Shown in pieces: positions 387 to 29,155 of a stretch of DNA of 35,075 nucleotides. A program made the translations under genes and the position numbers. Under the pieces are notes generated by a model. The model was given only the letters and a program-made list of their open reading frames with translations, was not told where the DNA came from and ran no database searches. The DNA is from a virus (Duplodnaviria; Caudoviricetes), in IMG/VR virus record IMGVR_UViG_3300033814_000039, positions 1-35,075 of that record. The stretch is one strand, 5' to 3'. The first letter of the stretch is position 1. Every line of letters begins with the position of its first letter.

Positions 387-710
387 TCACCCGATCCACT
401 CGTCCGGGATAAACTCGCTGACGTCGATGGGCACCCGATCCCGCTCCAGCGCCGGGCTCCCGAGCGCCTGCCAGAGCTGGAGCTTCTGCCGCCGCTCGAC
501 GGCCGCCTGGCAGTCCGGATCCCCGCAGAACCAGGCGTCAGGGACGTCCTGGGGGAACTCGTAGTGATTGCCCTCGTTGACCGTCCCATCGCTCCGGCAC
601 TTGACCGTGTAGCCCGGCTTCGATGGGTGCGGCGTCAAGTCTGCCGGGACCCGGCTCTTGATCAGCTCCTGGTCCGACGCCATCCTGGCCGTGCGCTCAC
701 CTTTCGCCAT
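387..710 (-). CDS. Hypothetical protein (107 aa), last late gene; possible fibre-associated protein
   Basis: Coupled to the fibre gene stop (TAATG); contains CGDPDC. Confidence 0.65.
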   Translation of the reverse strand: MAKGERTARMASDQELIKSRVPADLTPHPSKPGYTVKCRSDGTVNEGNHYEFPQDVPDAWFCGDPDCQAAVERRQKLQLWQALGSPALERDRVPIDVSEFIPDEWIG

Positions 711-5743: not shown

Positions 5744-6496
5744 CTAGAGGCCCTGCCGGAAGAGGAGCTGGAGCGCGTAGAGGTTTCTGACAAGGACGGA
5801 CCGCCCGGGCTGGAAGGGGTCCAGGACCAGCTCAGCCTTCGTGAAGGTGCGGTTATAGACGTCCGTCTCCCAGCTCCCCGGCCACGGCACGGCGGCGACG
5901 AGGGAGCCGTCCGCCACGTTGTCCGTCAGAATCGTCGTCGTGTTGTCGCTGATCGTCCCGACGAGCTTGTGGCTCCCGGTGTCTCCTGCGACCGTCCGGT
6001 AGATCTTTCGCGCCGTCGTTCCGGTCGGACCGATCGCAATGGACGTCAGGTTGACCTGCTTCGCTGAGGACGAGATCGTCAGGACGTTCGACTTGGGGCC
6101 CGCCCGGTGCTCCACACTCCCGGCCACGAAGGTCACCACCCAGGAGTGGTCCCCGATGTTGACGTTGCCGCCCGCCCCGGCGGCCGCCACGCAGGGGGAG
6201 GGAGTCTGCCGATCCAGGACGAGCGTGGATTGCCGGCCGAGCCCGGCGTGGGTATTCCACCACGACCGCACACTCGTCAGCATCGCCACTTCGAGATGGC
6301 GGAAGCGGAGCGCGGCTCGGCTCTCGATCCGTCGATGCAGCCGCTCGCGCGTCCCGTTATCCGAGATGTTTTCGGTCCCGATGGGCAATTCCACGGGTCC
6401 GACGAGCTCCGCTGGATCGTCAAAGCGGATGGTGAAGCCGCCTCCCACGATCTCCGGGTAGAAGAAGGTCGGCTTCGGGTCGCCGGAGAGGGGCAT
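5744..6496 (-). CDS. Putative distal tail (Dit-like) protein with an inserted Ig-like domain (250 aa)
   Basis: Immediately after the tape measure. The internal segment VVTFV...IAIGPTGTTARKIYRT...TISDNTTTILTDNVAD resembles a common phage Ig-like module. Confidence 0.6.
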   Translation of the reverse strand: MPLSGDPKPTFFYPEIVGGGFTIRFDDPAELVGPVELPIGTENISDNGTRERLHRRIESRAALRFRHLEVAMLTSVRSWWNTHAGLGRQSTLVLDRQTPSPCVAAAGAGGNVNIGDHSWVVTFVAGSVEHRAGPKSNVLTISSSAKQVNLTSIAIGPTGTTARKIYRTVAGDTGSHKLVGTISDNTTTILTDNVADGSLVAAVPWPGSWETDVYNRTFTKAELVLDPFQPGRSVLVRNLYALQLLFRQGL

Positions 6497-6499
6497 GGG

Positions 6500-11874: not shown

Positions 11875-12383
11875 CAGCGGCCTCCGAGCTGGCGGGCCAG
11901 CCGCTCCCCGAGCGCCTGAAAGCGCTGGCGGGCGATCGGGTCCAGCCGCTGCGCAGCCTGAAAGAACATCGACGCCCCCGTCGTGCCCACGCGGCCGATC
12001 TTGCGGGCGATGAGGAACGCCACGCTCCGGGCCCGGCGCGCATCCGAGATCCCGAGCTTCCGGACGACCCAGAGCAGGAGCGCCTTCGTCGGCGGTTGCT
12101 TGCCCGGCCGGCGGCCGCGCTCGACGATCGGCAGATAGAAGAGCGAGGACGCGACCACGCCCGTCCGCGCCCCCGGACGCCCGCGCAGCTCCGTGAAGAT
12201 CGACCCGCGGCCGAGGCCCGAGGCCCCCCGCGGCGTGCCGCCGACCACGAGCCGCTGGCCCATCGACGACAGCTCCGTCAGCTCCGCCGAGATCTCCTGG
12301 TCGAAGAGCGCCTGAAACGACCGCGATTCGAAGAGCGGCCCGGCCGTCTTGAGCTCGATCGTCAGGGGATCCCGTCCCGCCAT
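11874..12383 (-). CDS. HK97 gp10-like neck / tail-completion protein (169 aa)
   Basis: TPRGASGLGRGSI...YLPIVERGRRPGKQPP...IARKIGRVGT...FF pattern. Confidence 0.75.
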   Translation of the reverse strand: MAGRDPLTIELKTAGPLFESRSFQALFDQEISAELTELSSMGQRLVVGGTPRGASGLGRGSIFTELRGRPGARTGVVASSLFYLPIVERGRRPGKQPPTKALLLWVVRKLGISDARRARSVAFLIARKIGRVGTTGASMFFQAAQRLDPIARQRFQALGERLARQLGGR

Positions 12384-13075
12384 CAGCGCCACCGCCGCGG
12401 GTGATAGAAGCGGTCCCCGCCCGGCTGGAGGTCCACGTCCAGGTCAATCGACGCGCCCGCCGCCGGTACCTGGTCCTGATCCTTCAGCCCCAGGTGCTCC
12501 TTGAACGCTTTGAGGAGCCGGTCGGCGAGCATCGTGTAGTCCTGGGCCTTCGTGCGGTAGTTCACCGCGTCGGCGGCGAGCGTCGGGTCCTGGGTCTGCG
12601 CGTAGTACGCCGCCAGGGCGCGAGCGCCGAAGCTCGCGGCCAGCTTCGCGGCCGACTCCCGGTCGAAGACGGCCACCGTGTCCTGGGTCGCATCCACCGC
12701 GTGGCGCACCGTGTAGAGGAAGCGCACTTTTTCGCTCGCGGTCGGGGTGTGACGGATCAGTCGGAACCGAAGCCCCTGCGTGGGATCCCGGTACACCAGC
12801 CAGTCCTCGCGCTCGATGAATTCCGGCTCCCGCTTTCCGGCCGGATACTCGACCTCTCCGCGGAGCGTGGAGAAGCCGTCTTCCCAATCCGTCGGCACCG
12901 CGAATTCAAAGGCCGACCCCGTGCCCGTGATCTCGTGCACGCGCTCGCGGGGGCGGTGCTTCGAGTACTCCTTGATGGCCTCGGTGACGGCCTTGAGCTT
13001 CTCGGCCGGGGCGAGGAGGTTGGCCGTGTCCTTGAGCTCCTGATCGAACAGCGTGAGCCAATCAGCGAGGGCCAT
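12383..13075 (-). CDS. Putative head-tail adaptor/connector (230 aa)
   Basis: First gene of the neck block; helical N- and C-termini (AVTEAIKEYSKHRP; AAKLAASFGARALAAYYAQ). Confidence 0.65.
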   Translation of the reverse strand: MALADWLTLFDQELKDTANLLAPAEKLKAVTEAIKEYSKHRPRERVHEITGTGSAFEFAVPTDWEDGFSTLRGEVEYPAGKREPEFIEREDWLVYRDPTQGLRFRLIRHTPTASEKVRFLYTVRHAVDATQDTVAVFDRESAAKLAASFGARALAAYYAQTQDPTLAADAVNYRTKAQDYTMLADRLLKAFKEHLGLKDQDQVPAAGASIDLDVDLQPGGDRFYHPRRWR

Positions 13076-13081
13076 GGCGCC

Positions 13082-13399
13082 TCATTTCCGCACGATCCAG
13101 ACGTCCGAGTCGGCGTTGGGGAAGAAGACGTCCTTCGAGGTCGCGTCGGTGACCTTCCAGCGGGCGGTGTAGGGGCTCTTCGACATAAGAAGATCGGCCG
13201 CTACGGGCGCGTAGCGCGCCTTGGCCAGAACGGCGTCCACCCAGCTCGACACGCCCCCCAGCGTCACGAGGGCGCCCGCATTGTCCCGGAGCACCAGCGC
13301 CACCGTCGTCCCGGTCATGTTCCCGGCCACGCCATCCATCGTGAGCTGCATGTCGATCGGACCGGTCCACCCCTCGACAAGCGGGAGCGGCGCGTCCAT
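13082..13399 (-). CDS. BppU-N-like Ig-fold fibre attachment protein (105 aa)
   Basis: GNMTGTTVALVLRD...ARYAPVAADL...YTARWKVT...FFPN pattern; directly follows the repeat fibre gene. Confidence 0.55.
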   Translation of the reverse strand: MDAPLPLVEGWTGPIDMQLTMDGVAGNMTGTTVALVLRDNAGALVTLGGVSSWVDAVLAKARYAPVAADLLMSKSPYTARWKVTDATSKDVFFPNADSDVWIVRK

Positions 13400-14785
13400 T
13401 CACAGCTTCTCCGTGGTCCGTCGGGGCATGAGGGTCGCCGTCTCCCGCGCCGGAACCAGCGAGAACATCGCCCGGCGCGCCACGAGACTCGCCGCCGCTC
13501 GCGCCGGGATGAGCGACGCCACGGCCCGTCGGGGCATCAGCGAGATCGTCGTCGCGACGATCACATCCCCCAGGCTCGTGACCGCGAACGCTTGGAGGGC
13601 TTCCGCCAGATCCACGGTCTCGGGAAAGGCGCGCGCCACGGTGAGAATCCTGGTCTCCGTCAGGCCCAGGCCCTCCTGGACGGCGCGCCCGATCTGCGCC
13701 CGCCGCGCCTCGTCCAGGAGGGCCACATCCTCCAGCCGACGGGCGAACGCGGTCATCAGCGCCTGGGCAAGCCCCAGGCTCTCGGTGATCGTGCGCCGCG
13801 CCTGGCGGACCTGGCTCTCGGTGAATTCGACCGTCTCCTCGAGGAGGCGCGCCGTCAGGCGATCCACCTCCTCCGCGAGGAGGACGGTCTCCGCGATGGG
13901 GGCCCGCGCCGCCATGCGGCGGAGCGTTTCGGTTGCCTGAAGATCTTCCGCGAGTCTGACCGCGCTGGCCAGCGTCAGCGTCTCCCCCAGCAACGCGGCC
14001 TCCACGAGCGCCCGCCGAGTCTCCCGGGGGAGAGTTTCCACCAGGCTGACCGCGTCGGCGAGGTTCGACGCCTTGCCAACGCTCCGCGTGAGCGCCTCGG
14101 TGAACAGAACTTCGTCGCCCAGGGAGACGAGGACCGTCTTGATCGCCGTGAGGGCCTCCGCGAGCTCCGGGCTCTCCGCGAGCACGCGCCGCGTCTCCCG
14201 CACCAGCTGCTCTGTGAAGGCCGCCGCCTCGGCCTCCGTCCGGCGCGTCTCCCGGCGCTGGGCCTCCGTCAGGCCCAGCGTGTCCGCGACCTGGAGGATG
14301 ATCAGCCTGACGGGCGCCAGCGACTCCTGCAAATCGGCCGCCTCCGCGATCGTGCGGGCGATCCGGTTCAGCACCATATCTGTCAGATTGACCGTCTCCT
14401 CGATCTTCGCATCGACCCGAAAGATCAGAGCTTCCGCGAGCCCCAAGCCTTCGGCGATCGCCTTGCCGGGCTGTCGTGTCAGCGCCTCCGTGGGGATCAG
14501 CTCCTCGGCGATGGTCCGAAGCACCAGGCGCGTCAGCACGCTCGTCAACCCCACCGTCTCGACGAGGAGCTTGCCCGTCTGCGGCGTCAGCGCCTCCACG
14601 AGGTTCGGGGCCTCGGCCATCGTGCGGTCGGCGCGGCGGAGGAGCGCCTCCGTCGCCTCGAGCGTGTCGGCGAGGGCCTGCTCGAACGTGACGCCGCCGA
14701 ATAGGGTCATTGAGCTACGGCGGCGAGGCGGCCGCAGCAGGAGGAGCCCGGGCATCGACCGCAACTGGAGGTAGTAACCCGGCAT
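13400..14785 (-). CDS. Repetitive fibre-like protein (461 aa): ~20 x 18-aa repeats plus 5 x 9-aa C-terminal repeats
   Basis: Repeats such as TIAEELIPTEALTRQPGK, AIAEGLGLAEALIFRVDA, LLEETVEFTESQVRQARR; C-terminal MPRRAVASL, IPARAAASL, VARRAMFSL, VPARETATL, MPRRTTEKL. Confidence 0.75.
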   Translation of the reverse strand: MPGYYLQLRSMPGLLLLRPPRRRSSMTLFGGVTFEQALADTLEATEALLRRADRTMAEAPNLVEALTPQTGKLLVETVGLTSVLTRLVLRTIAEELIPTEALTRQPGKAIAEGLGLAEALIFRVDAKIEETVNLTDMVLNRIARTIAEAADLQESLAPVRLIILQVADTLGLTEAQRRETRRTEAEAAAFTEQLVRETRRVLAESPELAEALTAIKTVLVSLGDEVLFTEALTRSVGKASNLADAVSLVETLPRETRRALVEAALLGETLTLASAVRLAEDLQATETLRRMAARAPIAETVLLAEEVDRLTARLLEETVEFTESQVRQARRTITESLGLAQALMTAFARRLEDVALLDEARRAQIGRAVQEGLGLTETRILTVARAFPETVDLAEALQAFAVTSLGDVIVATTISLMPRRAVASLIPARAAASLVARRAMFSLVPARETATLMPRRTTEKL

Positions 14786-14788
14786 CGC

Positions 14789-15046
14789 CTACTCTATATC
14801 CTCGTCCGTCACCAGGATCACCGCACCAGCCGCTTCCGCGGATTCCTCGGCCGGCGTCATGCTCAGCATTGCGGGTGTGAGACCGCGGCCATCCAGCAGC
14901 ACCTTGTAGCGCGGCCCTCGGGTCTCGTCCGGTCGCCTCGGGTGGTTGGGATCCATCGCGAAGTGCCCACAGCTCCTGAGGATCATCCCCTTGCGTCCAT
15001 CGAGCAACGTCACCGCCTCGTTATCACTAAAGCGTCCAGGCTTCAT
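14789..15046 (-). CDS. Hypothetical protein (85 aa; start MKPGRFSD)
   Basis: Strong AAGGAGGAG RBS before the ATG at 15046. Confidence 0.65.
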   Translation of the reverse strand: MKPGRFSDNEAVTLLDGRKGMILRSCGHFAMDPNHPRRPDETRGPRYKVLLDGRGLTPAMLSMTPAEESAEAAGAVILVTDEDIE

Positions 15047-15057
15047 GGGCTCCTCCT

Positions 15058-15528
15058 TTACTGGAGCTCGCGCGCGACCAGCGTCGCCCGCCACGTCCCC
15101 GACGCGGGCGCCACCGGAAACTTCATGGCGATAATCCCGCCTTGTGGGACCCAGATCTCCCCGGGCCGGACCGGGGTCCAGAGCCACCCGTTCAGAATGT
15201 TGAACCCCTCGTCTATGAGAACCTCCCCATCCGTGCCTTCGGCCGACCCCGTGTAGCCCGTCGCCGCGGTTCCTCCGACAGCCAGGGAGGAGGGATTTCC
15301 CGGGTTCGTCTTCCGAGGCGTGAAGCTCGTGACGGTCGCCGCGGCCGTTTTCCTGAGCAGCTGGACCTGTTCCTGGGTGCTCGTCTCCGAGAGCCCCTGG
15401 GTTAGTACGGCCCGGATCACTTCGAGGGCTGCGGCCCCGGCCTTAATTTGGAGAAGCGTGATCGCCGTCGAGATGACGACCCCAGCGTCCCCGTTCTTCA
15501 CGATGTAGATATAGCCATCCGTCGGCAT
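15058..15528 (-). CDS. Hypothetical beta-rich virion-type protein (156 aa)
   Basis: TGATG coupling, AGGAGG RBS, Thr/Gly/Ala-rich composition. Confidence 0.7.
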   Translation of the reverse strand: MPTDGYIYIVKNGDAGVVISTAITLLQIKAGAAALEVIRAVLTQGLSETSTQEQVQLLRKTAAATVTSFTPRKTNPGNPSSLAVGGTAATGYTGSAEGTDGEVLIDEGFNILNGWLWTPVRPGEIWVPQGGIIAMKFPVAPASGTWRATLVARELQ

Positions 15529-16220
15529 CAGGCTGCCTCCTGATACAGCGTCTGAGGGCGCCGCAGGAGCGGCGGAAGCACCGTCACCTCCGCCGCGGGA
15601 TGCACGGCCAGCGTGCAGGCGTTCCAGTCATCAGACGGCGACGTAAACGTTCCTGGATCCTGCGATGCGGCATTCAGTTCGAGTCGAGCCGCACCCATAC
15701 ACACGTGCCCCGAACCCCCCGGCGACTCCTGCGCGAAGAGATTAGTAAAGTTTGTAGGAGCCACAGTGGGTTGGTTCCCCGATCCGTCGATCGCCGCGAA
15801 TGCGATCCAGAGGTAGTCCTTGGCGCCCCCGGTTGGAGTCAGTCCATCGGGGTTTGCGTTCGAGCTGAGCCCCCCGGCGCCGGCCGAGACCTGCGGCGGC
15901 GTCCCGGCCCCCGCGTGCCCCGTGATGCGGTAGGACTGATGCACGGACGCCTCCGACGTCCCCGTCGTGACCGTGATCGTGCTGCCCTCGGTCCCGTCGG
16001 CGATCCGATACCCGATAGAGAGCGTAGACTCCGTATTGGCATTGAGGTCGATGAGCTCGGTCCACCCGCCCGGCCAGCCGACCTCCTCGTTCGAGTCGGC
16101 ACCGAAGAGGACAATGAGGAGATCGCCGGATACGATTCCGCTCGGTAGATTGACCGCGTGATCGGTCTGGTTCACCGTGCTCGCGCCGGAATTGGTCGCC
16201 GCGACTTGCGGAAAAGCCAT
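15528..16220 (-). CDS. Putative virion surface/adhesin domain protein (230 aa)
   Basis: LPSGIVSGDLLIV...WPGGWT...YRIADGTE motif resembling a common phage surface beta-sandwich; locally lower GC. Confidence 0.65.
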   Translation of the reverse strand: MAFPQVAATNSGASTVNQTDHAVNLPSGIVSGDLLIVLFGADSNEEVGWPGGWTELIDLNANTESTLSIGYRIADGTEGSTITVTTGTSEASVHQSYRITGHAGAGTPPQVSAGAGGLSSNANPDGLTPTGGAKDYLWIAFAAIDGSGNQPTVAPTNFTNLFAQESPGGSGHVCMGAARLELNAASQDPGTFTSPSDDWNACTLAVHPAAEVTVLPPLLRRPQTLYQEAA

Positions 16221-16484
16221 CTAGGGACTCCACACCGCACTCCACTCCACATCGAACGACGTAATCTCTCTCCCTGTCCCATCCTCGTTGACCACTCGAC
16301 GAACCGCCAACTGGCGACCGCGCACGTTGAGCTTCTCCCGTGCTCCTACTCGGATCGAGGATCCCGCGATCGTGAAGGTGACGGCACGATCTCCGGTGGA
16401 TTCGATCGTCATCGCCCCCGTCCCGTCATGCTCCAGCACGAGGAACTGGTCCCGGTTGCGACGGAGCAGATTATGAAGCGCCAC
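16221..16484 (-). CDS. Hypothetical protein (87 aa)
   Basis: GGAG RBS before GTG; stop abuts the next start. Confidence 0.55.
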   Translation of the reverse strand: MALHNLLRRNRDQFLVLEHDGTGAMTIESTGDRAVTFTIAGSSIRVGAREKLNVRGRQLAVRRVVNEDGTGREITSFDVEWSAVWSP

Positions 16485-16566
16485 ACCAGAGTCTCCCGAG
16501 CGCCCACGCCCAGACCGCGCCAGTCAGCAGAATCAACCCGCTCGTCACGAGGACCCGCTCAGTCAT
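16471..16566 (-). CDS. Possible single-TM micropeptide (31 aa, MTERVLVTSGLILLTGAVWAWALGRLWCGAS)
   Basis: Manual translation; overlaps both neighbours; one hydrophobic helix. Confidence 0.35.
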   Translation of the reverse strand: MTERVLVTSGLILLTGAVWAWALGRLWCGAS

Positions 16567-16783
16567 CGACCCACCCGGCCTTGAGACACGCTTGGTGGAC
16601 TGCCTCACCGATGCCCTCCGGGCTTGACCCCTGCACGTTTGCCTTGCCGACTCGCACCGTGGCCTTGCAGGTTTGAAGGACGCGCCCGTGACGGGTGAAG
16701 GAGCCGCGACGGAGAATCAAGCGACCGCCCCGAGACCGCTCCACCGCCCGTCGCACGAGGACGCCGAGCTCGGCATCCGTCAC
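16559..16783 (-). CDS. Hypothetical protein (74 aa; start GTG, MTDAELGVLV)
   Basis: GTGA coupling to the upstream stop. Confidence 0.5.
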   Translation of the reverse strand: MTDAELGVLVRRAVERSRGGRLILRRGSFTRHGRVLQTCKATVRVGKANVQGSSPEGIGEAVHQACLKAGWVDD

Positions 16784-17154
16784 GGGGGCGGCACCGTTAC
16801 GAACTTCGGTCCCGGCACCGTGTACCAGACCGCGTTCCAGCGAAATACCTCCCGGTCCGGGTCTCGATACACGGCCGCCGCCATCCACCAGGTCCGGCTG
16901 TCCGGGATCGGCACCGTGAAGCCGGGGGTCGTCGATTCGGCCACTCGCCTCCAGGCCGTCGGAATCCGGTTCACGTTCCAGCAGTTTGACGCGCACCGAT
17001 AGAGCCGGTAGGCCGTGGCCCCCTCGGACATCGCCCAGGAAAACGTCTCCGTGCGGGGAGGGGTTTGGGGCGAGGATGGATTCACCCAGAACAGCGCCCC
17101 TGCAATCGTCGCGGCAAGCCAGAGACTTGCGATCAGGAGAAGCCGAGCGATCAT
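16780..17154 (-). CDS. Signal-peptide/anchor-bearing FN3-like protein (124 aa)
   Basis: MIARLLLIASLWLAATIAGALFW hydrophobic N-terminus; TFSW...GATAYRLYRC FN3-like strands; CASNC cysteine pair; ATGA coupling. Confidence 0.65.
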   Translation of the reverse strand: MIARLLLIASLWLAATIAGALFWVNPSSPQTPPRTETFSWAMSEGATAYRLYRCASNCWNVNRIPTAWRRVAESTTPGFTVPIPDSRTWWMAAAVYRDPDREVFRWNAVWYTVPGPKFVTVPPP

Positions 17155-17573
17155 CCCGTCGTCACCCGTGGGGTCGGAAAGAGCCAATCCTCGACCGCCG
17201 TCAAGCCGAGCGCCCGGAGGAACGCGATCAGGAGGTTCGTCGGCCCGCCCGGAGTGGGGAGCGTCGTCCCGGCCGCCTCATTGGAGGGCGCGGACATCCC
17301 GGCCGCATTGAAGGCGCGAACGCGATAACAGACGGTTTCTCCGGGACCCAGCGGGGCATGTGTAAACGCCTTGACGTTCACCCCCACGCGCGCGAGCTCC
17401 GTGAACGCCGTCCCCGGACTACACGGTCCCACGTGGGACTCGATCGCAAACCCGTCCTCGTTGGTCGCGTTGTCGTTCCAGGACAGGTCCAGTTTCCCGA
17501 CTCCCGCGTGACCCAAACCGGGCATGAGCAGCACCAGCAACACGATCAGCCCCATGACTCCGACCCTCTTCAT
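17151..17573 (-). CDS. Secreted fibronectin type III domain protein (140 aa)
   Basis: Sec-type signal MKRVGVMGLIVLLVLLMPGLGHA; LSWNDNATNEDGFAIE...CYRVRAFNAAGMSAPSNEA is a classic FN3 signature; two Cys. Confidence 0.8.
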   Translation of the reverse strand: MKRVGVMGLIVLLVLLMPGLGHAGVGKLDLSWNDNATNEDGFAIESHVGPCSPGTAFTELARVGVNVKAFTHAPLGPGETVCYRVRAFNAAGMSAPSNEAAGTTLPTPGGPTNLLIAFLRALGLTAVEDWLFPTPRVTTG

Positions 17574-18121
17574 CGTGTTCCTCCTCTGCGCCTCAGTTGA
17601 TTGTGAGGGTCACTCGCGGGAAGCTCTCCCATGTATCCGAAGGGCCGGCACTCCTCACAGTAAATGGGGGTCGGACCGGGTCCTCTTCTCGTCTTGGCGG
17701 GGTGAATTCCACACAGGCGGCAGGGGAGCGTCCCGGTGACCGCCTTGGGGGCAATCGGCTCGTTCCGCTGGATCAGCCGGCCGTCGGCTCCCCGGTGCCG
17801 ATGCGGCAGCTCGCAGCGTTTGCAGCGGGTCGCTGTCGGCGTGATCGGCCGGAGACAGTCCACGCACCGTTTCAGGAGCGTCGCGGCCAGTGCCCGCTCG
17901 ACCCGGGCCACGGCCTCTGAGGCCGGGCCGTCGCCGGACAGGCCCGACGGCGCGGGGGGAACCCCGTGGCGATCGAGGAGCACCAACCCCTCTCGCGGCG
18001 TCAGCTCTCCCAGCCCGATCCGCTCGATGATCCGCCGAAGTTCTGCTCTCTCCGGCAGCCACGTCGCTGCCAGGAGGAGCAGGGCCGCGACTTCCGTCTC
18101 CAGAGGGACGACCTTCGTCAT
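17570..18121 (-). CDS. Zinc-binding protein with four CxxC motifs (183 aa)
   Basis: CVDC, CKRC, CRLC, CEEC; ATGA overlap with the next gene. Confidence 0.6.
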   Translation of the reverse strand: MTKVVPLETEVAALLLLAATWLPERAELRRIIERIGLGELTPREGLVLLDRHGVPPAPSGLSGDGPASEAVARVERALAATLLKRCVDCLRPITPTATRCKRCELPHRHRGADGRLIQRNEPIAPKAVTGTLPCRLCGIHPAKTRRGPGPTPIYCEECRPFGYMGELPASDPHNQLRRRGGTR

Positions 18122-18141
18122 CGTTCAAGCCGTAGGGTCGC

Positions 18142-18948
18142 TCAACTCCCGGGTGGCATGATCTGCGCCCGAACCAACCTTCGGCCGACCCGCCAGGGGA
18201 TGAAAAGCTCGATCAGGAAGACCAGCAGGAGTGCTCGCAGCGCGAAGATGTCTTCAACAGTGAGGTCATACGTCGTTTGAAGGGAATCGGCCGACGCCAA
18301 GTTGATCACGGAGAACACGACGCGGCTCCAGAGCGTCCCGCCACCAGTCGCCGCCTGGCTGTGGAGACCCCACTCCGTGACGGCAGCGGTCGCGTCCACC
18401 GTGTTCGTGCCGACGGTGCGAAAGACGCTGGCCGAGGCTTCCGTCAGGGAGCCCGTGGCGCGGGTGTTGTCGGGGTTATATTGGGTCGTCAGCTCGGTCC
18501 CGAGGGCCGTGTCGCCCTCAGCCGCCGCGACGGCACCCGTCCCAATGCCGTGGAACTTCATGATCTCCAGCTCGACGAGGTTCTGCCACGCGTCGATCAG
18601 GAATGCTTCGCCGGCGTTGACGATCAGGTTCCGGACATGTCGGTCGGCGAGGACCTGGCAGGTCCCGGCCATGGCGTGCGCGGGCCCCGGCCGGAGCCAG
18701 GCCGCGAGGGTGCGCTTGGCCTGCTGCTCCAGGGAATACCGCTCCCACGCCTGCACGAGCTGGTCGGGCCGCTGGCACCCGCCCTCCACGATCGGACGGA
18801 GCTGGACCGCCGTGAGCCAGCCGGAGAGCTTCGCGGACTCGCGGACGTACCGGTGGTAGATCCCGCTGGCCGTCCAGCCGACGCTGACCGACGCGAGGAT
18901 CAGCAGTGCGAGGCACGTCGTCATCTTGAGTCGGGCGTATCGCTTCAT
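18142..18948 (-). CDS. Phage fibre-base/collar-like structural domain with an N-terminal signal/TM and a hydrophobic C-terminal tail (268 aa)
   Basis: Core NLIVNAG...GIGTG...DTALGTEL...VTEWGL...GGTLWSRVVFSVIN...DSLQTTYDLT; N-terminal MKRYARLKMTTCLALLILASVSVGW; C-terminal IFALRALLLVFLIELFIPWRVGRR; AGGAG RBS. Confidence 0.7.
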   Translation of the reverse strand: MKRYARLKMTTCLALLILASVSVGWTASGIYHRYVRESAKLSGWLTAVQLRPIVEGGCQRPDQLVQAWERYSLEQQAKRTLAAWLRPGPAHAMAGTCQVLADRHVRNLIVNAGEAFLIDAWQNLVELEIMKFHGIGTGAVAAAEGDTALGTELTTQYNPDNTRATGSLTEASASVFRTVGTNTVDATAAVTEWGLHSQAATGGGTLWSRVVFSVINLASADSLQTTYDLTVEDIFALRALLLVFLIELFIPWRVGRRLVRAQIMPPGS

Positions 18949-18977
18949 CGTCCCTGGTCTCCTCTTCTCGTTGGAGC

Positions 18978-19166
18978 CTAGGCGTTCTCGTAGCCGAGAG
19001 CGCGGTAGACCTTTACCGTTTGTTCGTCCGCTTCGCCCGGGTGCGCGATGACGTCAACTTTCGAGATCGAGACGTCAGCCGCGATCGCGGCGCGCGCCTT
19101 CTCGGCGGCCTGCACCGCCATCTCCAAATAGGTGAACCCCTCGATCACGATGCGACACAGACCCAT
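18978..19166 (-). CDS. Hypothetical protein (62 aa)
   Basis: AGGAGG RBS; fills the gap between neighbours. Confidence 0.65.
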   Translation of the reverse strand: MGLCRIVIEGFTYLEMAVQAAEKARAAIAADVSISKVDVIAHPGEADEQTVKVYRALGYENA

Positions 19167-19178
19167 CGGCTCTTCCTC

Positions 19179-19721
19179 CTATGGTGTGATCGTCACGCGC
19201 CGGACAGAGACCCAGCCGTCCGGTTCCGTTTCGGTGTGCAGCACGCCCCGCCCGCGGAGCTCCCCATCCCGGGTGCGGACGGCGATCGAACGCACCGCCA
19301 CCCCGGTCGCGGTCCCCGCGGGATCACGAAGGATAGACAGCCCCACGACGGGCGGCAGCATCGTCACGTCCCGAAGGGCATAGAGCCGGCCGGCGACCTC
19401 CACGGGCGTCGCCGGATCGAGCGCGAGGCGAGGCACCTTCGGCGGCGTGCTCGGTCCGCCGCCCCAGCGGATCAGAAAGGCGAGCGCGGCCTGGACCTGG
19501 CGCGGCAGCTTCTGGGCGCGGAGCTCGCCCTGGATCGTTTTCGGCCGCTCCCCGGGCTCCTGCTTGACGGTGATCTCGTACTCGCTCGTGTCGGGGCGGA
19601 TGACCTTCGCTTTGAAGTCTTCACCCACGCCCAAGCGGTCGCGCTGGGCAGGACTTGCGGCCGGCCAGGCGAGCCCCAGCGTGACCAGCGCGATGACGAG
19701 AAGACGCGCCGGCCGGTTCAC
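19179..19721 (-). CDS. Signal-peptide-bearing hypothetical protein (180 aa; start GTG, MNRPARLLVIALVTLGLAWPAASPA)
   Basis: GTGA coupling; basic n-region, hydrophobic h-region, SPA cleavage-like site. Confidence 0.7.
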   Translation of the reverse strand: MNRPARLLVIALVTLGLAWPAASPAQRDRLGVGEDFKAKVIRPDTSEYEITVKQEPGERPKTIQGELRAQKLPRQVQAALAFLIRWGGGPSTPPKVPRLALDPATPVEVAGRLYALRDVTMLPPVVGLSILRDPAGTATGVAVRSIAVRTRDGELRGRGVLHTETEPDGWVSVRRVTITP

Positions 19722-20182
19722 CGCCGGCCCGTTACGATGACGACCGTGATGTTGTCGATGGTCGGCGAGGTGCCGCCCGTGATCACCAGGTCCACGGTGA
19801 TCGCCGCGTCCTTGGCCACGCTCTGCTGGGCCGCGGTCAGCGTCGCCTCCACCACCGTGCCGGCGGCCGGCGTCCCGATGTCCATCGCGTTCGTCACGCC
19901 GGTCCCGGCATTCAAGACCTGCACGGTGGACGTGCCCTGCGTGCCGCCCTTGGCCTGGATCGCGACTTCGACGTAGAGGATCCGCAGGTCGAAGGGGGCG
20001 TTGAACTTGACGATCCCGGTCTTCGAGGCGGTGTACTGCCCCGAGAGGTGGAAGGTCATCACCTGGAGGTCCGAGCCCTTCGCCGGCAGGGCCGGCGCGG
20101 CCGCCTCGAGCGACAGCGCCCACACGGCGAGGCACGCCGCCAGGAGCATGAGGATCAGGGGTCGCTTCGTACGTGCGATCAT
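19718..20182 (-). CDS. Putative head decoration-like protein carrying a signal peptide (154 aa)
   Basis: First gene after the capsid gene; AAGGAG RBS; MIARTKRPLILMLLAACLAVWALSLEA signal; beta-rich mature domain (AKDAAITVDLVITGGT). Confidence 0.7.
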   Translation of the reverse strand: MIARTKRPLILMLLAACLAVWALSLEAAAPALPAKGSDLQVMTFHLSGQYTASKTGIVKFNAPFDLRILYVEVAIQAKGGTQGTSTVQVLNAGTGVTNAMDIGTPAAGTVVEATLTAAQQSVAKDAAITVDLVITGGTSPTIDNITVVIVTGRR

Positions 20183-20211
20183 TGCGCTCGTCTCCTTTTT
20201 CCGCGATCCGA

Positions 20212-20238
20212 GGCGGGGGCCCGTCATGGACCCCCGCC
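20212..20238 (-). promoter_or_regulatory. Strong RNA hairpin after the capsid gene, with no U-tract (attenuator or mRNA-stabilising element)
   Basis: Minus strand GGCGGGGGTCC-ATGAC-GGGCCCCCGCC: 11-bp stem with one G-U pair. Confidence 0.5.
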
Positions 20239-20257
20239 CGCTCGCTCACGGGCCGGG

Positions 20258-22606
20258 TTAGCCGGCCACGACGTTCTTGGTCGCGCCCTTGACGCCGAGG
20301 ATGTCCCCGCCGTACTCGTGGCGGATCTTGTACTGGATCTTGTCGCCCAGGAACGCCTGGCCTACCGTCGGCTGCTCGGCCAGGAAGAACTCCGGCTCCT
20401 CTCGGCCCTGGAGGAAGTCCACGCCGACGCTCGGCCGCCCGCCGGCGCCGGGGCTCACGTGGAGCCCCCAGTCCGTCACGTCGGTGAAGAGCGGGTTCAC
20501 ATTGATGCGCTCGCCCGCCTGGCCGAAGTGCTTGAAGACCGGGTTCACGTTGCCCGCGCCGAACTCCATGGAGTTGTTGATCTGCATCGCCACGCCGTAC
20601 AGCGCGTGCGGGACGTCCAGCCAGAGGCTCTCGATCGGCGGCAGCCCGAGCTTTTCCGCCGAGCCCTCCTCCGTCATGTCCGCGAGCTGGATGATCTTGG
20701 CGAGCACCTCAGTGGCGCCCGTCAGATCCGCCGTGAGCGCCGTGGCGCCGGTGTTGGCGTGCGTGGCGTGGAACCACGCCAGCGCATCCACGTCATAGAC
20801 GGCGTTGGTGCGCCAGAAACTCCAGATGAACCGGGCCAGCGTCCGCCGGGCGGCGCGGCCCAGCCGGCCGACCAGGCGCGACACCGCGCCCAGATCGTCG
20901 TTGATGATCGTTTTCCGGGTGATCGTCAGGATGTTGCCCTTCTGGCCGACGGCGTAGGAGACCTTGTCGTCGCCCGGCGCCGCGATCTCCACGTAGTCGG
21001 CGAGCTCGGGATCCACGTCGGCGAGATCGCCGAAGTAGTGCTGGACGATGGCTTCCTTGGTGCGGAAGTCCGCGGCCCGGCCGAACTCGGCGATCGAGCC
21101 TTCGTTGTAGCGCGGCTGGGCATAATCCTGGAGCAGCCGCCGGTAGAGGGTGTTGCCCAGGATGTCCCCCCACGTGGCGCTCGTGATCGTCTCCGAGACC
21201 CGCTGGATGCGCCCCGTGATCTCCGGGTCGCCTGTGATCTCCGCGTAGGCCCGCCGGAGCGAGCCCTGGAAATCGAGCCCGCGATCCTTGTGGGCCTCCA
21301 CGTTCGGCGCCAGGCTCTCCCGGACCCTCGTCAGGGTGCGCTCGTTGAACGGCGCGGACTCGAGCGCCCGTGTGAACCGCTCGGGGCTCACGTCGAAGAG
21401 GCGGTCCATCGCCGCCTGCACCTTGTCGAGCGGGGCCGCCAGGATCTCGATCCGACCCTGGCCGAACCCCCGGACGTCCCCCGTGGGCGAGAGCTTCGCC
21501 AGCGTCTCGACCTCTTCCTGGACGACCGACTGGATCTCGGCCGCCTCGGCGGCGCGCCCGGCAAAACGCTTGGCGATCTTCTCCTTCACCGGCGCGGGCA
21601 GCTGGGTCGCATCGAGTGCCTCGGTCACGCGCGCCTGGGTGTCCCGCACCGCCAGGTCCTGCTTGAGGCGCTTCGCCCACTCGGGCTCGCCCGCGGCCTC
21701 GGCCGGCGGCTTGAGCGCCTCACGGACCAGGCCCTTGAGATCCTCGTCCGTGAGCGTCTCCATCGTCCGGCCCTCGAGCAGCTGCGGCCGGTGCTCCTTG
21801 ATTAGCGCGATCAGCTCCTGCCTTGTCATCGGGTGATCCTCCCTCTCTCCAGTGGTGAGCAACGGCCCGGCCGTCGCCCGAATGAAGCGCCCATCTGCCG
21901 CAGGCGCCGTGACGATGTCCACAGACAGCAGCCGCTTGATCTCACGGATCCAGCGGGCCATCCCTTCCCGGACCCGGACCGGCACGTAGCCCGTCAGGGT
22001 ATCGACCGAGAGCCCCAGGACCTTCTGGAGCACCCCTCGGGCCTCGAGGCCCAGGAGTTTCCGCCGGAGCCAGCCGGCGTCCTCGTGGATATGAGCTTCG
22101 GCATAGAGCCCGTCGGCCTCCAGCCGCGGCGCCTGGAGGTCGCCCACGATGTTCCGGACGACGGGGCCGCCGGCCTGGACGAGCGCCTCCCCATCCGCGT
22201 GGAGCTGGGCCCCGGTCTGGTAGGCGTACACCCCGATCGGTGCCCCGGTGATATGCGGCAGGAGCGCTTCCGCGCTCTCCCGTGTCCAGAGCCACCCGTT
22301 CTGGCTGAGCCCGAGCTTCAGGACCCGCACATCCCACACGGCCCCGGTTTTGTCCCGCGAGCGCTCGAACGCCACGGATTCGCCCACCGTGGCATAGAGG
22401 GTCTCGACCTTCTCCCGGTCGCCGAGCGTCACCTCGCCGTCGGCCGCGACGGTGTAGTGGATCCGGTAGCGCTCCGGCCCGATGTTGAAGACGACGGCAT
22501 CCAGAAAGGTCGCCTCGATATAGGGCCCGGCGGCTTGGTCCCCCGCCGGGTAGCGGGCCTGGAGCGCGGCCCGGAGTTTCTCGTGGAGCTGCTCGAAGGA
22601 GTGCAT
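20258..22606 (-). CDS. Prohead protease-scaffold-major capsid fusion protein (782 aa; Mu gpT-like capsid domain)
   Basis: N-terminal protease-like region (GLSQNG...H...NIVG...GLSVD...SVDIVTAPAADGRF), helical linker, and C-terminal ITRKTIINDDLGAVSRLVGRLGRAARRT...FLQGREEP...YKIRHEYG capsid signature. Confidence 0.85.
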   Translation of the reverse strand: MHSFEQLHEKLRAALQARYPAGDQAAGPYIEATFLDAVVFNIGPERYRIHYTVAADGEVTLGDREKVETLYATVGESVAFERSRDKTGAVWDVRVLKLGLSQNGWLWTRESAEALLPHITGAPIGVYAYQTGAQLHADGEALVQAGGPVVRNIVGDLQAPRLEADGLYAEAHIHEDAGWLRRKLLGLEARGVLQKVLGLSVDTLTGYVPVRVREGMARWIREIKRLLSVDIVTAPAADGRFIRATAGPLLTTGEREDHPMTRQELIALIKEHRPQLLEGRTMETLTDEDLKGLVREALKPPAEAAGEPEWAKRLKQDLAVRDTQARVTEALDATQLPAPVKEKIAKRFAGRAAEAAEIQSVVQEEVETLAKLSPTGDVRGFGQGRIEILAAPLDKVQAAMDRLFDVSPERFTRALESAPFNERTLTRVRESLAPNVEAHKDRGLDFQGSLRRAYAEITGDPEITGRIQRVSETITSATWGDILGNTLYRRLLQDYAQPRYNEGSIAEFGRAADFRTKEAIVQHYFGDLADVDPELADYVEIAAPGDDKVSYAVGQKGNILTITRKTIINDDLGAVSRLVGRLGRAARRTLARFIWSFWRTNAVYDVDALAWFHATHANTGATALTADLTGATEVLAKIIQLADMTEEGSAEKLGLPPIESLWLDVPHALYGVAMQINNSMEFGAGNVNPVFKHFGQAGERINVNPLFTDVTDWGLHVSPGAGGRPSVGVDFLQGREEPEFFLAEQPTVGQAFLGDKIQYKIRHEYGGDILGVKGATKNVVAG

Positions 22607-22854
22607 CAGGGCGCCTCCACCTCGGCCTTCTTCGGCGGCCGGCCGGCGTGAAAGTCGCTGAGCGGCTTCACGTCGGCGCCTTTCTTCCAGCGGACCTTGT
22701 GGGCGCCGTTCGTGACGATCGTGACGTCATCCTTCTTGACGCCGACGGCCATGATCTCCTTGTCCGGATCGAGCTTGTAGGCCTTGCACGCGGCCTCGAC
22801 CATCGCGATCGCGACATCCGTGAGTCCCTTCCGCCACCCATTGCTCGCCATCAT
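22606..22854 (-). CDS. Hypothetical protein (82 aa)
   Basis: AAGGAG RBS; TGATG coupling to the capsid fusion gene. Confidence 0.7.
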   Translation of the reverse strand: MMASNGWRKGLTDVAIAMVEAACKAYKLDPDKEIMAVGVKKDDVTIVTNGAHKVRWKKGADVKPLSDFHAGRPPKKAEVEAP

Positions 22855-22866
22855 TCGGCTCCTTTC

Positions 22867-23718
22867 TTACGCGGGCCAGTCCGCCTTGTAGGGCAGGCTC
22901 AGGCATCCGCAGTTGACGCTGTTGGCTGCGCTCGCCCGCGGATCCCGCGGGTAGAGCAGCTGCTCCGCCGGTCGGTTCGCCGCCGGCGCGATGTCGAAGA
23001 AGTCGTGCACGTCCCGCACCTGGCCGTCGGCCAGCTTGTGAGTCGGCCGGAAATCGATCGCCCCGCTGTGCCGCCACTCTTTCTGGAGGTCCGGCACCAG
23101 GCGCCGGCTCTCCTCGAGCGTGGCCTGGCCGGCGATCGCCTGCAGGCGCCCCAGCTCCGTTCGTGTGATGGCTTCGGCCCGGGCCGCGATCGACGCGAAC
23201 GGCCCCGGGCGCCGGAGCGAGCCGGCTACCTCCTGCATCACCTCGAAGACGCTCTTGCCCTCGAGCGCCCCGAGCCGGAGCGCCTGGGTGATCCGATGGC
23301 CGGCGTCGCGGCTCAGGCCCGTGATGAGATCCGCGTGGAAGTCCTGGGCCGCTTCCACGAGCCGGCGTGGGATCTCCGGCACCCCGAGCGTGAGCCCGCC
23401 TTCGACGACGGGCTGGGCGATCAGCGCCCGGCCGAGGCCCACGGCCTCGGCCTGGAAGGGCTGGATCGCCGTGCCATAGCGCGAGGCGAACTCCCCCGTG
23501 ACGTCCTGGATCCGGCCAGCCAGCGCCCCCAGGCGCTGCGCCGAGAACCCCTCCGCCCCAGCCAGCTCGCCCAGGACCCGGCGGCGGAGGGCCTCGAGCT
23601 CCTCGAGCGCGGCGCGCACGGCGTCATCGGGCAGGCGGTCGATCCGCGCCCGGATGATGTCGATGCGCTGCCGGAAGCGCTCCTGGGGCGTCGAGGCCAG
23701 GGCGGCGCGCGCCGTCAT
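22867..23718 (-). CDS. Minor head morphogenesis protein, Mu gpF / SPP1 gp7 family (283 aa; start MTARAAL)
   Basis: RAEAITRTE...KEWRHSG...RPTHKLADGQ...YPRDP...NCGC signature; follows the portal gene. Confidence 0.85.
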   Translation of the reverse strand: MTARAALASTPQERFRQRIDIIRARIDRLPDDAVRAALEELEALRRRVLGELAGAEGFSAQRLGALAGRIQDVTGEFASRYGTAIQPFQAEAVGLGRALIAQPVVEGGLTLGVPEIPRRLVEAAQDFHADLITGLSRDAGHRITQALRLGALEGKSVFEVMQEVAGSLRRPGPFASIAARAEAITRTELGRLQAIAGQATLEESRRLVPDLQKEWRHSGAIDFRPTHKLADGQVRDVHDFFDIAPAANRPAEQLLYPRDPRASAANSVNCGCLSLPYKADWPA

Positions 23719-27424: not shown

Positions 27425-27745
27425 TCATGCACCGGCGACGCCCGGCACGGTCTTCGTGCCCTCCAGCACGTCCACGCCGTCGGCCGTGATCCGCCAGGCC
27501 CAGTAATGCTCCCGGCCGATCTTCGTCTCGTGGAGCTTCACCAGGGTCTTGTCTCGCAGGTAGAAGAGATGGGCGCGGACCTGGCTCATCAGCATCGGCA
27601 TCCCCATCTTGTCGAGCTGCCGCTGGATCAGCTCCTCGGCCGTGTACGTCGAGGGATCCTCCGTCCGTTCCCGGTCCCGCGTCCGCGCCGCGTCGAGAAC
27701 CATGAGGATGTACCGCCGGATCAGCTCAGCTCGCGCGTCCGCCAT
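27425..27745 (-). CDS. Mu gp26-like winged-helix protein (106 aa)
   Basis: RRYILMVL...VRAHLFYLRDKTLV...ITADGVDVLEGTKTVPGV pattern; lies before terS. Confidence 0.75.
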   Translation of the reverse strand: MADARAELIRRYILMVLDAARTRDRERTEDPSTYTAEELIQRQLDKMGMPMLMSQVRAHLFYLRDKTLVKLHETKIGREHYWAWRITADGVDVLEGTKTVPGVAGA

Positions 27746-28070
27746 CGGGCACCCGCTTCTTCAGCTCGGCCAGCTCCCGCAGGATCAGCTCCTGACCGAT
27801 CAGGAGGTCCTGGAACTTGAATTCATCCCGCCGAGGCACTTCGTGGAGCTCCCGCGCCAGCATCGCCATCGCGTCGGCCTGCTTTTGCGCCGCCCGGACG
27901 AACGGGGGCACCGATTGTGCGATCACGAGAAAGATCAAGAGCCCGGGGCCCCACTTGAGGAGCAGCTCGCGCATCTCCGGGCCCACGTCGCCCCAGACCG
28001 CTGCGCCCGTGAACGCCGCGAGGGCGCCCCATGGCAGGAGCTCCTTGGCGAGCGCCCGCGTGCGCTCCAT
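27726..28070 (-). CDS. Membrane protein, holin candidate (114 aa)
   Basis: Two hydrophobic segments followed by a charged coiled-coil tail; within the lysis cassette. Confidence 0.55.
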   Translation of the reverse strand: MERTRALAKELLPWGALAAFTGAAVWGDVGPEMRELLLKWGPGLLIFLVIAQSVPPFVRAAQKQADAMAMLARELHEVPRRDEFKFQDLLIGQELILRELAELKKRVPDGGRAS

Positions 28071-28168
28071 CAGCCGCACCAGCTCTGGCGGGCCCGGCCA
28101 TCGTAGGGCCGCGCCAGCCCGGCCTCGACCAGAACGCCCGCGCCCGCGCAGAACACCGCCCGCGTCAT
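28070..28168 (-). pseudogene. 32-aa remnant resembling the C-terminus of a thermonuclease (SNase-like) protein
   Basis: MTRAVFCAGAGVLVEAGLARPYDGRARQSWCG; the LxxxGLARxYDGxxRxxWC ending is typical of SNase-like nucleases. Confidence 0.5.
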
Positions 28169-28470
28169 AGCGGCCCCGGCCCCGCGACGGTTCGGGCGAG
28201 ATCGACGGCCCGATCCGCCAGCTCCTCTTCGAGCGCCGCCTTCCGGTCGGGATCCGATTCCAAGAGGACCGTGTCCAGCAGGCGACGGATCTCTTGTCGG
28301 AGCTTCCGGATTTCCTCGGTCTGATCTGTCTGCGCCCCCCGATCTTCCCACCGCTGGTAGATGCTGATGCCGCTGGAGAGGAGCCCGCCGATCCCGAAGA
28401 CGATCTCGACGCATCCCCCGAGGGGCAGCGCCAGGGCGATGACGAAGAGCCCGGCCAGGGCGCGCCTCAC
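28165..28470 (-). CDS. Lipoprotein (101 aa), spanin candidate
   Basis: MRRALAGLFVIALALPLGG|C lipobox; +2 residue is Val; coiled-coil C-terminus. Confidence 0.7.
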   Translation of the reverse strand: MRRALAGLFVIALALPLGGCVEIVFGIGGLLSSGISIYQRWEDRGAQTDQTEEIRKLRQEIRRLLDTVLLESDPDRKAALEEELADRAVDLARTVAGPGPL

Positions 28471-28712
28471 GGGATCCTCGATTCACAGACGAGCCGGCCC
28501 TCGATCCCCCAGTCCCGATGGACGTCCGCCAGCCGCGCTCGCGTCCTGACCGGCGGCGATGCCGGCGGCGGCGCCTGGACCACGGGCGCGGAGGGCGGCG
28601 GCACGACGATGACGTCTGGCCGCAGGCTCCACCGATCCAGCGCAAAGGCGGCCGCGATGAGCAGGGCCAGGACGAGAACCCGACCGAACGCCCCCAACCC
28701 CGGGACCTTCAC
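28467..28712 (-). CDS. Single-TM, proline-rich protein (81 aa), spanin candidate
   Basis: GTGA coupling; VLVLALLIAAAFAL TM segment followed by VVPPPSAPVVQAPPPASPP. Confidence 0.6.
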   Translation of the reverse strand: MKVPGLGAFGRVLVLALLIAAAFALDRWSLRPDVIVVPPPSAPVVQAPPPASPPVRTRARLADVHRDWGIEGRLVCESRIP

Positions 28713-29155
28713 GCCACGGCCTCCGTCTCCAGCTCCGGCCGCCGCCGAGCGAACTGCCAGAACGGCGACTGCGTCGGGCGATCGCGCCCGGGCGGCTCGA
28801 GCACCCGACCCGTGTCGAACTCGCTGATCACCACGCCCGCGATCGAATCCCGCGCCTCCACCACGCGCCCGTCGCCGAGCGACACGCCCACGTGCCAGCG
28901 CGGTGAGGACCGAAAGACGAGCGCGCCCGCCAGACCCCGCGCCTCCGTCAGCGTGCAGACGATCCCCTGGCGGGCCTGGTTGGAGGAGCCATCCGGCATC
29001 GAGAGACCGATCTGGCGGGCCGCGTACTCGATCAGCTCCGAGCAGTCCCACGGCCCCTTGGCGTTCGGGTCTTGGAGGGTTACCTCGGCGCCGTAGGAAT
29101 AGCGCTCGCCGACGTGGCGCAGCAGCTCATCGACGAAGCGCTGGGCCTGTTTCAT
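28709..29155 (-). CDS. NlpC/P60-family peptidoglycan hydrolase, putative endolysin (148 aa)
   Basis: YSYGA...WDCSEL (catalytic Cys) and GALVF...HVGVSLGDGRVVEA (His); first late gene. Confidence 0.8.
   Translation of the reverse strand: MKQAQRFVDELLRHVGERYSYGAEVTLQDPNAKGPWDCSELIEYAARQIGLSMPDGSSNQARQGIVCTLTEARGLAGALVFRSSPRWHVGVSLGDGRVVEARDSIAGVVISEFDTGRVLEPPGRDRPTQSPFWQFARRRPELETEAVA

Follow-up and report, generated by a model that had tools for sequence, protein, structure and literature searches.

A predicted jelly-roll capsid cement with a Sec-type leader in a Mu-like phage, and its possible export before assembly

The cytoplasm is taken to be where tailed-phage particles are finished, and the locus described here raises the question of what an export leader is doing on a gene that appears to encode part of a phage head. 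The locus lies in a 35,075-base stretch of DNA (the window), which is the complete IMG/VR virus record IMGVR_UViG_3300033814_000039 (Duplodnaviria; Caudoviricetes) and in which all genes that we scored are on the minus strand. Directly behind the capsid gene, the gene at 20182-19718 encodes what we predict to be a jelly-roll capsid cement, the conserved core of our finding, and this product begins with a predicted Sec leader. The reading that we consider best, and place slightly on the probable side, is that the cement is exported and then binds mature heads at lysis; it draws on a genomic slot, a leader anatomy, a start register of leaderless forms and a cysteine parity that we demonstrate below. 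Window genes are named by the coordinate at which they start, and those needed first are the following.

20258..22606, minus strand: fused head protease-scaffold-major capsid protein, 782 aa, without a leader (PF25209 Phage_capsid_4, E 2e-30; PHROG 4523, major head and protease, E 3e-28).
20183..20257, minus strand: spacer between capsid and cement genes, with predicted GC-rich hairpins (minimum free energy -40.5 kcal/mol, raw value) and the AGGAG Shine-Dalgarno (SD) sequence of the cement gene.
19718..20182, minus strand: cement-like jelly-roll protein, 154 aa, with a predicted Sec leader at residues 1-27 and a predicted cut after Ala27, as judged from an AlphaFold2 model, fold, family and synteny.
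12383..13075, minus strand: conserved 230-aa gene, interpreted by its position alone as a head-tail adaptor (67 homologues among the genes of the loci; no Pfam or PHROG match), which ends a variable insert.

An earlier note, made from the letters of the window, had claimed that five of the seven genes following the capsid gene carry Sec-type leaders, and the five starts do exist on the minus strand where it placed them. We scored a leader where the best uncharged 11-residue window had a mean Kyte-Doolittle value of at least 2.2 and was preceded by net positive charge. By this rule 20182, 19721, 18948, 17573 and 17154 are positive, each opening with a basic N-terminus and continuing into a hydrophobic stretch without charges, and 19166 and 18121 are negative, just as claimed. 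Among 27 late genes outside the cluster only two are positive, both of them spanin-like lysis genes (28470 and 28715). An SD sequence (AGGAG/GGAGG) is present at starts 20182, 18948 and 17573; at 19721 and 17154 the start overlaps the stop codon upstream and no clear SD sequence is seen. In related capsid-cement spacers of at least 35 nt, z was below -2 in 26 of 45.

Homologues of the cement comprised 23 close proteins plus 150 of the 210 cluster representatives among the matches listed, and 172 homologues were rescored with a profile of the mature part only, to remove bias toward leaders. At E<=1e-10 the family so defined contains 42 members with a leader, 42 without and 9 others, and both kinds of homologue that the earlier note had asked about thus exist. 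In 18 close homologues, identity to the window protein is 36% in the leader and 71% in the mature part. Cut-site, motif and cysteine counts were made on 57 leader forms and 56 leaderless forms. By our own rule the leaders have the anatomy expected of the Sec system and signal peptidase I (SPase I), namely a basic n-region, an uncharged h-region and small residues at -3 and -1. Of the 57, 35 have Ala at -3, 41 have it at -1 and 45 at +1; the window cement itself has Leu at -3 and Ala at -1. Leaderless forms have Met at the position equivalent to -1 of the leader forms in 34 of 56 cases, and therefore both routes would give the same N-terminus. Taken at the level of sequence, the leader is likely a cleaved signal, cut by SPase I. 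We rejected a twin-arginine translocation (Tat) route, the twin-arginine motif being present in 0 of the 57 leader forms.

The position of the gene was followed in 74 loci, 16 of which were left out (duplicates, window copies, a Microcystis phage, one locus without a match and one with a fused distant match). This left 58, with 47 leader-bearing and 11 scored as leaderless by heuristic gene calls. As in known jelly-roll cements, the gene lies next to the major capsid gene: this holds for 45 of the 47 leader-bearing loci, the other two being at contig edges, and for 8 of the 11 scored leaderless, which are truly leaderless and in the same slot (two of the rest are cut by contig ends and one is not beside the capsid gene). 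Nor does the true start appear to lie downstream of the leader: the leader start has an SD sequence in 46 of 47 loci, and a single locus of the 47 has an alternative start with an SD sequence close to the mature end. Among the 250 genes counted from the adaptor-type gene on, only two have a leader. Twenty-two loci come from bacterial genomes (17 with a leader, 3 without, 2 cut) of Alpha-, Beta-, Gamma- and Deltaproteobacteria, Nitrospirae, Thermodesulfobacteriota and one Planctomycetota bin, lineages that we take to be diderm throughout; these genomes are mostly bins, and a host assignment may be wrong. The cultured isolate Dongia deserti SYSU D60009 has two leader-bearing prophage loci, and DsbA-family matches were found in three of four host genomes. 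Behind the same capsid type, locus L077 has a different 265-aa leader-bearing protein with 2 Cys (L077:5930-6727; PHROG 4368), so that exported proteins have come to occupy this slot at least twice. In another locus a gene for a cold-shock-type protein, recognized by eye, lies between the cement and adaptor genes (L033:1941-2144).

On a quick tree of the cement family, leader and leaderless forms are interleaved, with 15 changes of state of which at least four are forced, and repeated origin of the leader is suggested by this tree. The near relatives L035:9986-10444 (leader) and L036:9971-10342 (none) have the same gene order, and no leader remnant is visible in the 70-base spacer of L036.

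Exported proteins have an established bias toward even numbers of cysteines, and the leader forms follow it. Their mature parts have 0, 1 or 2 Cys in 36, 4 and 17 cases, respectively (even in 53 of 57), and leaderless forms have 0, 1, 2, 3 or 6 Cys in 24, 22, 5, 4 and 1 cases (even in 30 of 56; Fisher p 1.5e-6, although kin share states). The 17 Cys pairs occupy six different position pairs, five of which presumably join strands that are neighbours in the topology of the canonical jelly roll. Within the same loci, the count is even in 41 of 47 cements vs 21 of 44 adaptors. In the family of the 18948 protein, a collar-type protein described below, an inserted segment has 0 or 2 Cys in 41 of 41 leader forms and an odd number in 27 of 74 leaderless forms (115 of 120 scored). 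Export of the cement is well supported by leader anatomy, by the register with leaderless orthologues and by the even-Cys bias, and export of the 18948 and 17573 proteins is supported, so this part of the earlier proposal stands. The loading onto virions at lysis is inferred.

Is the protein a cement? AlphaFold2 predicts a leader helix (residues 7-23) and a ten-strand jelly roll (pLDDT, the predicted local distance difference test, 79.6), a single jelly-roll/Ig-like beta domain within the 120-160 residues of a cement. Among 48,161 chains compared, the model matches the cements of cyanophage Pam1 (7eel_H; Z 9.2, root-mean-square deviation (rmsd) 3.0, 117 residues aligned), Bordetella phage BPP-1 (3j4u_H; Z 8.3, rmsd 3.1, 107 aligned) and Ralstonia phage GP4 (8h89_J; Z 8.1, rmsd 3.2, 117 aligned), and Foldseek places Pam1 second. 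The window protein resembles these cements (Pam1, GP4 gp1, BPP-1) in predicted fold, in a length of about 125 residues and in an N-terminal arm before the first strand. It differs in that identity is only 12-14%, in the cleavable-type leader present in half of its family, and in a capsid that is a Mu-like protease-capsid fusion. In the text available from PMC9698820, the Pam1 cement's N-terminal loop grips the capsid, and the trace of GP4 gp1, a protein of 157 residues, begins at Ala2, so that it has no leader. We dropped our first guess of a dimeric cement, as the same text gives the Pam1 and GP4 cements as trimers (PMC9698820); our guess is now a trimer as in those phages.

In the mechanism that we propose, the cement would be expressed from the late transcript together with the other late genes, exported by the host Sec system and cut by SPase I to the same N-terminus with which leaderless orthologues start. 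It would fold in the periplasm, be released when lysis mixes periplasm and cytoplasm, and then bind the outside of mature, DNA-filled heads. The likeliest benefit would be one of timing, the cement being kept off immature heads, with disulfides gained later in some lineages. A wider version, which we would place a little on the doubtful side of even, is that transposable phages infecting diderm bacteria include a large group whose virions are finished outside the cytoplasm. The cement, and in some lineages collar-type and fibronectin type III (FN3) appendage proteins as well, would accumulate in the periplasm, undergo oxidation and at times glycosylation there, and join heads during or after lysis; one structural gene would be switched by adding or dropping its signal peptide, and cement set free could coat other particles or serve as a decoy.

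The separate steps have parallels. Phage L Dec, T4 Soc/Hoc and lambda gpD, which are made in the cytoplasm, bind expanded or mature heads and differ in fold from the window cement. Filamentous-phage pVIII and pIII are virion proteins that use host signal peptidase; they are membrane-embedded and assembled in a non-lytic extrusion, whereas the window cement is a soluble domain and belongs to a tailed phage that likely has a lysis cassette. According to the parts of review PMC7602432 available to us, decoration proteins attach to mature capsids at a late stage and can do so in vitro, as Dec does, and therefore addition after lysis is chemically possible. The word 'signal' is absent from the main text of that review, and export is unmentioned in the available text of the phi24B and HFTV1 papers. 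A literature search at the level of titles and abstract openings, thin in subscription papers, found no paper describing an export route for a tailed-phage cement. The cement itself is thus of a known kind, and it is the trafficking, if confirmed, for which we found no precedent. What the locus adds is both forms in one slot, the start register, a parity control and a cultured host. If the proposal is true, a Sec-exported cement adds a compartment-crossing last step to morphogenesis, virion surfaces gain access to disulfides and envelope glycans, and the annotation of late-operon signal-peptide genes, now mostly as morons, changes. Leader and leaderless orthologues in one slot are a natural experiment that can be put to the test in Dongia deserti SYSU D60009, and a decoration protein that is exported and tolerates disulfides would make a useful scaffold for display.

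Several findings weigh against export followed by head binding. First, the structural match is not exclusive: the TNF ligand 4-1BBL (Z 9.6) and IBDV VP2 (Z 9.5) tie with Pam1, 42 chains reach at least Z 8, and C1q, carbohydrate-binding module (CBM), TNF and viral jelly rolls score equal to capsid cements. With such scores among other jelly rolls, the cement family cannot be named from the fold alone, and at the sequence level we found no link to a solved cement and no relevant PDB, Pfam or PHROG match. Second, half of the family works without export. Third, the leaders were scored with our own n/h/c heuristic rather than a trained predictor, and the window leader has a lipobox-like stretch at residues 14-17. 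Such a stretch occurs in only 2 of the 57 leader forms; as it is absent from the window's 91% identical relative, we take it as chance and reject a lipoprotein (SPase II) route. Fourth, the tree test does not reject one common origin for the leader (AU p 0.06), and the parity counts are phylogenetically non-independent, with only four independent pairs, too few for the sign test to reach significance. Fifth, the 36 of 57 leader-bearing cements that have no cysteine include the window's. Disulfide formation, the reason for export offered earlier, therefore cannot be the general one, and the benefit of export is unexplained by it.

We think it unlikely that the cement is exported but has gone from the virion, acting in the periplasm or medium as a glycan-binding decoy, lysis helper or exclusion factor and keeping its slot by descent. 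The evidence for export would hold without capsid binding, the fold also matches CBM, C1q and TNF domains, and the longer N-termini of the 18948 homologues in L004, L038 and L078 look like uncleaved anchors. This reading must however accommodate the interleaving of leader and leaderless cements on the tree with a common N-terminal motif and slot, and the identical gene order of the near relatives L035 and L036; it is weakened because repeated switches of function without change in the core are unlikely.

Less probable again is that the leader is no export signal and instead parks the cement at the inner membrane, on its cytoplasmic side, or keeps it inactive, until the head protease cuts it, assembly remaining cytoplasmic. 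The Nixviridae of Porphyromonas gingivalis, likewise tailed prophages, have SignalP-positive genes that include those of capsid proteins, and in the available text of PMC10367356 the authors read the SignalP-positive N-termini of the capsid proteins as head-protease substrates and the remaining leaders as serving outer-membrane modification, with no exported cement proposed there. Parking would need no new assembly route. It fits poorly with a tripartite leader that has Ala-x-Ala but whose sequence itself is not conserved, and with the even-Cys bias at several different pair positions. In addition, by the positive-inside rule a basic N-terminus predicts a periplasmic C-terminus.

We regard as improbable that export serves glycosylation, with a periplasmic O-oligosaccharyltransferase adding host-type glycans to a cement that then coats the virion. 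One locus, unique in this respect, has an O-antigen ligase family gene (L013:2327-3361; PF04932, above cut-off) between a leader-bearing cement and the adaptor-type gene. Leader forms are slightly richer in Ser+Thr (0.22 vs 0.19) and have 53 Thr-Asn where 36 are expected, leaderless forms having 26 where 22 are expected; these shifts are small. A phage-encoded O-antigen ligase as general cause we rejected, PF04932 being present in 0 of 37 phage records (0/35 and 0/2, four of them at least 90% complete) and missing from a near-identical copy of the window; a host enzyme may still serve.

That the five genes are ordinary lysogen-expressed morons with a chance likeness to virion parts is very improbable. 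In its favour, the insert at 19721-13082 is variable with a lower G+C content at third codon positions (GC3 0.77-0.87 vs 0.92-0.95), and the loci contain no homologue of 18121 or 17154; such an origin may still hold for these two alone. Against it, starts and stops overlap, no sigma-70-type promoter was found in 12000-23000 (0.6 expected, a weak test), virion folds are predicted for 20182 and 18948, and the cement has a fixed slot behind the capsid gene, a GC3 of 0.95, a strong SD sequence and leaderless orthologues in the same slot.

We turn from the cement to the genes behind it. The earlier note had joined all five leader-bearing genes in one system, and this does not survive comparison: the adaptor-type gene directly follows the cement in 38 of the 44 leader-bearing loci that have it, and a further leader-bearing downstream gene occurs in only 5 of 27 leader-bearing loci. 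In the window the adaptor-type gene comes 6.6 kb beyond the cement, and therefore 19721-13082 is an insert. Its first genes are these.

19179..19721, minus strand: 180-aa protein with a Sec-type leader, no Cys and no family, partner of the 18948 gene (homology to L083:2265-2780).
18978..19166, minus strand: 62-aa gene without a leader (weak PHROG 18949 match, E 0.0015).
18142..18948, minus strand: collar/fibre-adaptor-fold protein, 268 aa, with an N-terminal signal or anchor and C58/C97 (AlphaFold2 and structure comparison).
17570..18121, minus strand: 183-aa Cys-rich gene without a leader, with 8 Cys in CxxC motifs, likely an unrelated insertion.
17151..17573, minus strand: single FN3-domain protein, 140 aa, with a Sec-type leader at residues 1-23 and C51/C82 (PHROG 31, E 6e-6).
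16780..17154, minus strand: 124-aa orphan with a leader or anchor by our own rule and a CxxxC pair (C54/C58); FN3 unconfirmed.

The cysteine pairs noted earlier in the last three leader-bearing proteins are present as listed, and the structural domains proposed for the cluster hold for the jelly-roll 20182 product, the collar/fibre-adaptor 18948 product and the FN3 protein 17573; FN3 in the 17154 product could not be confirmed by a profile match. The 18948 model (pLDDT 80.6) has a core at residues about 108-230, with the fold of HFTV1 tail 9h4p_BD (Z 10.5), GP4 fibre/adaptor 8jou_a (Z 8.6), Sf14 neck 9c39_K (Z 6.2) and Bas63 9mt4_K. The window protein is unlike these collar/fibre-adaptor domains in its N-terminal signal or anchor and in the Cys pair of its inserted segment. 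Its family counts 1965 homologues, with a leader in 41 of 115 scored close homologues. The N-termini of the 18948 and 17154 proteins may be uncleaved anchors rather than cleaved signals. At 18142-18255 (minus strand), 18948 has a 36-aa hydrophobic C-terminal tail that is absent from aligned homologues, and GC3 falls to 0.55 at its codons 221-240, beside the orphan Cys-rich gene 18121, for which no homologue was found among the genes of loci L002-L074; tail and GC3 drop together suggest a recent junction. A contig of run X5 covers 18104-19389 and shows no difference from the window.

The 19721 protein is 36% identical over its length (E 3e-25) to L083:2265-2780, which has a leader and precedes an 18948 homologue; a homologue of its N-terminus is found in L004 and, by eye, in L077; the 19721-18948 pair recurs with leaders in L083, L004 and L077. 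The best ESM Atlas score of the 19721 protein, 0.79, is uninformative. An 18948 homologue followed by an FN3 leader protein is seen in L038 and, by eye, in L078. In addition to its PHROG 31 match, the 17573 protein matches myomesin, titin and FN3con in profile comparisons (E 1e-5 to 4e-3); its homologue P0299 matches PF00041 (E 0.0025, below cut-off), and all six other homologues have a leader. In the window, L004, L038 and L077 the 18948 homologue has a hydrophobic N-terminus and the gene following the capsid gene has a leader; L079, L086 and L095, with the same capsid type and an 18948 homologue, have neither (a small sample, not independent). Downstream genes are leader-positive in 12 of 334 cases in leader loci (six of them in L038) vs 0 of 70 in leaderless loci. 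We read 19721, 18948 and 17573 as an optional cassette that recurs in a few phages only. It likely uses the same export route and may add surface appendages, a step about which we have more doubt than confidence. In L038:5532-8683, six consecutive leader- or anchor-bearing genes follow the neck genes, the first of them homologues of 18948 and 17573, and most have 2 or 4 Cys.

The window is 99.996% identical over 22 kb to one IMG/VR contig, and its sequence is present in sediment metagenomes. Pfam and PHROG matches mark a Mu-like phage (MuB-type ATPase, Gam, GemA, Gp27-type small terminase and Mu F) and include a large terminase, a portal, the fused protease-capsid gene, a tape measure and, weakly, a tail tube. 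MuA transposase and host-joined ends were sought; the record stops just short of the MuB-type gene. In ESM Atlas the cement retrieved unnamed viral clusters only, the nearest Pfam-bearing clusters scoring <0.8, and it was unmatched by tblastn with two queries among 50,697 records of cultured phages. The Microcystis phage Mae-JY22 (L014, PP438414.1) has the same protease-capsid fusion at 6029-9174, 30% identical over the full length and annotated as hypothetical, and no annotated cement-sized gene lies between it and the next gene, of 226 aa. Three metatranscriptome contig sets gave scattered pieces of 150-290 bases over capsid, cement, insert and neck genes at a depth of 2-5; such contigs cannot rank genes or exclude DNA and are of no use as expression evidence.

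Release of the phage is addressed by one further feature.

27726..29155, minus strand: likely lysis cassette, with an NlpC/P60 peptidase (28709-29155; PF00877, E 5.5e-9), two spanin-like genes, one with a lipobox, and a holin-like gene.

The spanin-like and holin-like genes have no family match and are labelled from their anatomy; together with the NlpC/P60 gene they suggest lytic release from a diderm host. After the tail-tip gene, a 434-aa glycine-rich protein without a family match (710-2014, minus strand) has an N-terminus that by eye resembles L073:5053-5589. Finally, a 461-aa short-repeat protein of no family (13400-14785, minus strand) has a homologue in L004, and by eye its repeat looks like the N-terminus of the mature 19721 protein and like the first strand in the 18948 family, a likeness hinting at assembly by strand donation.

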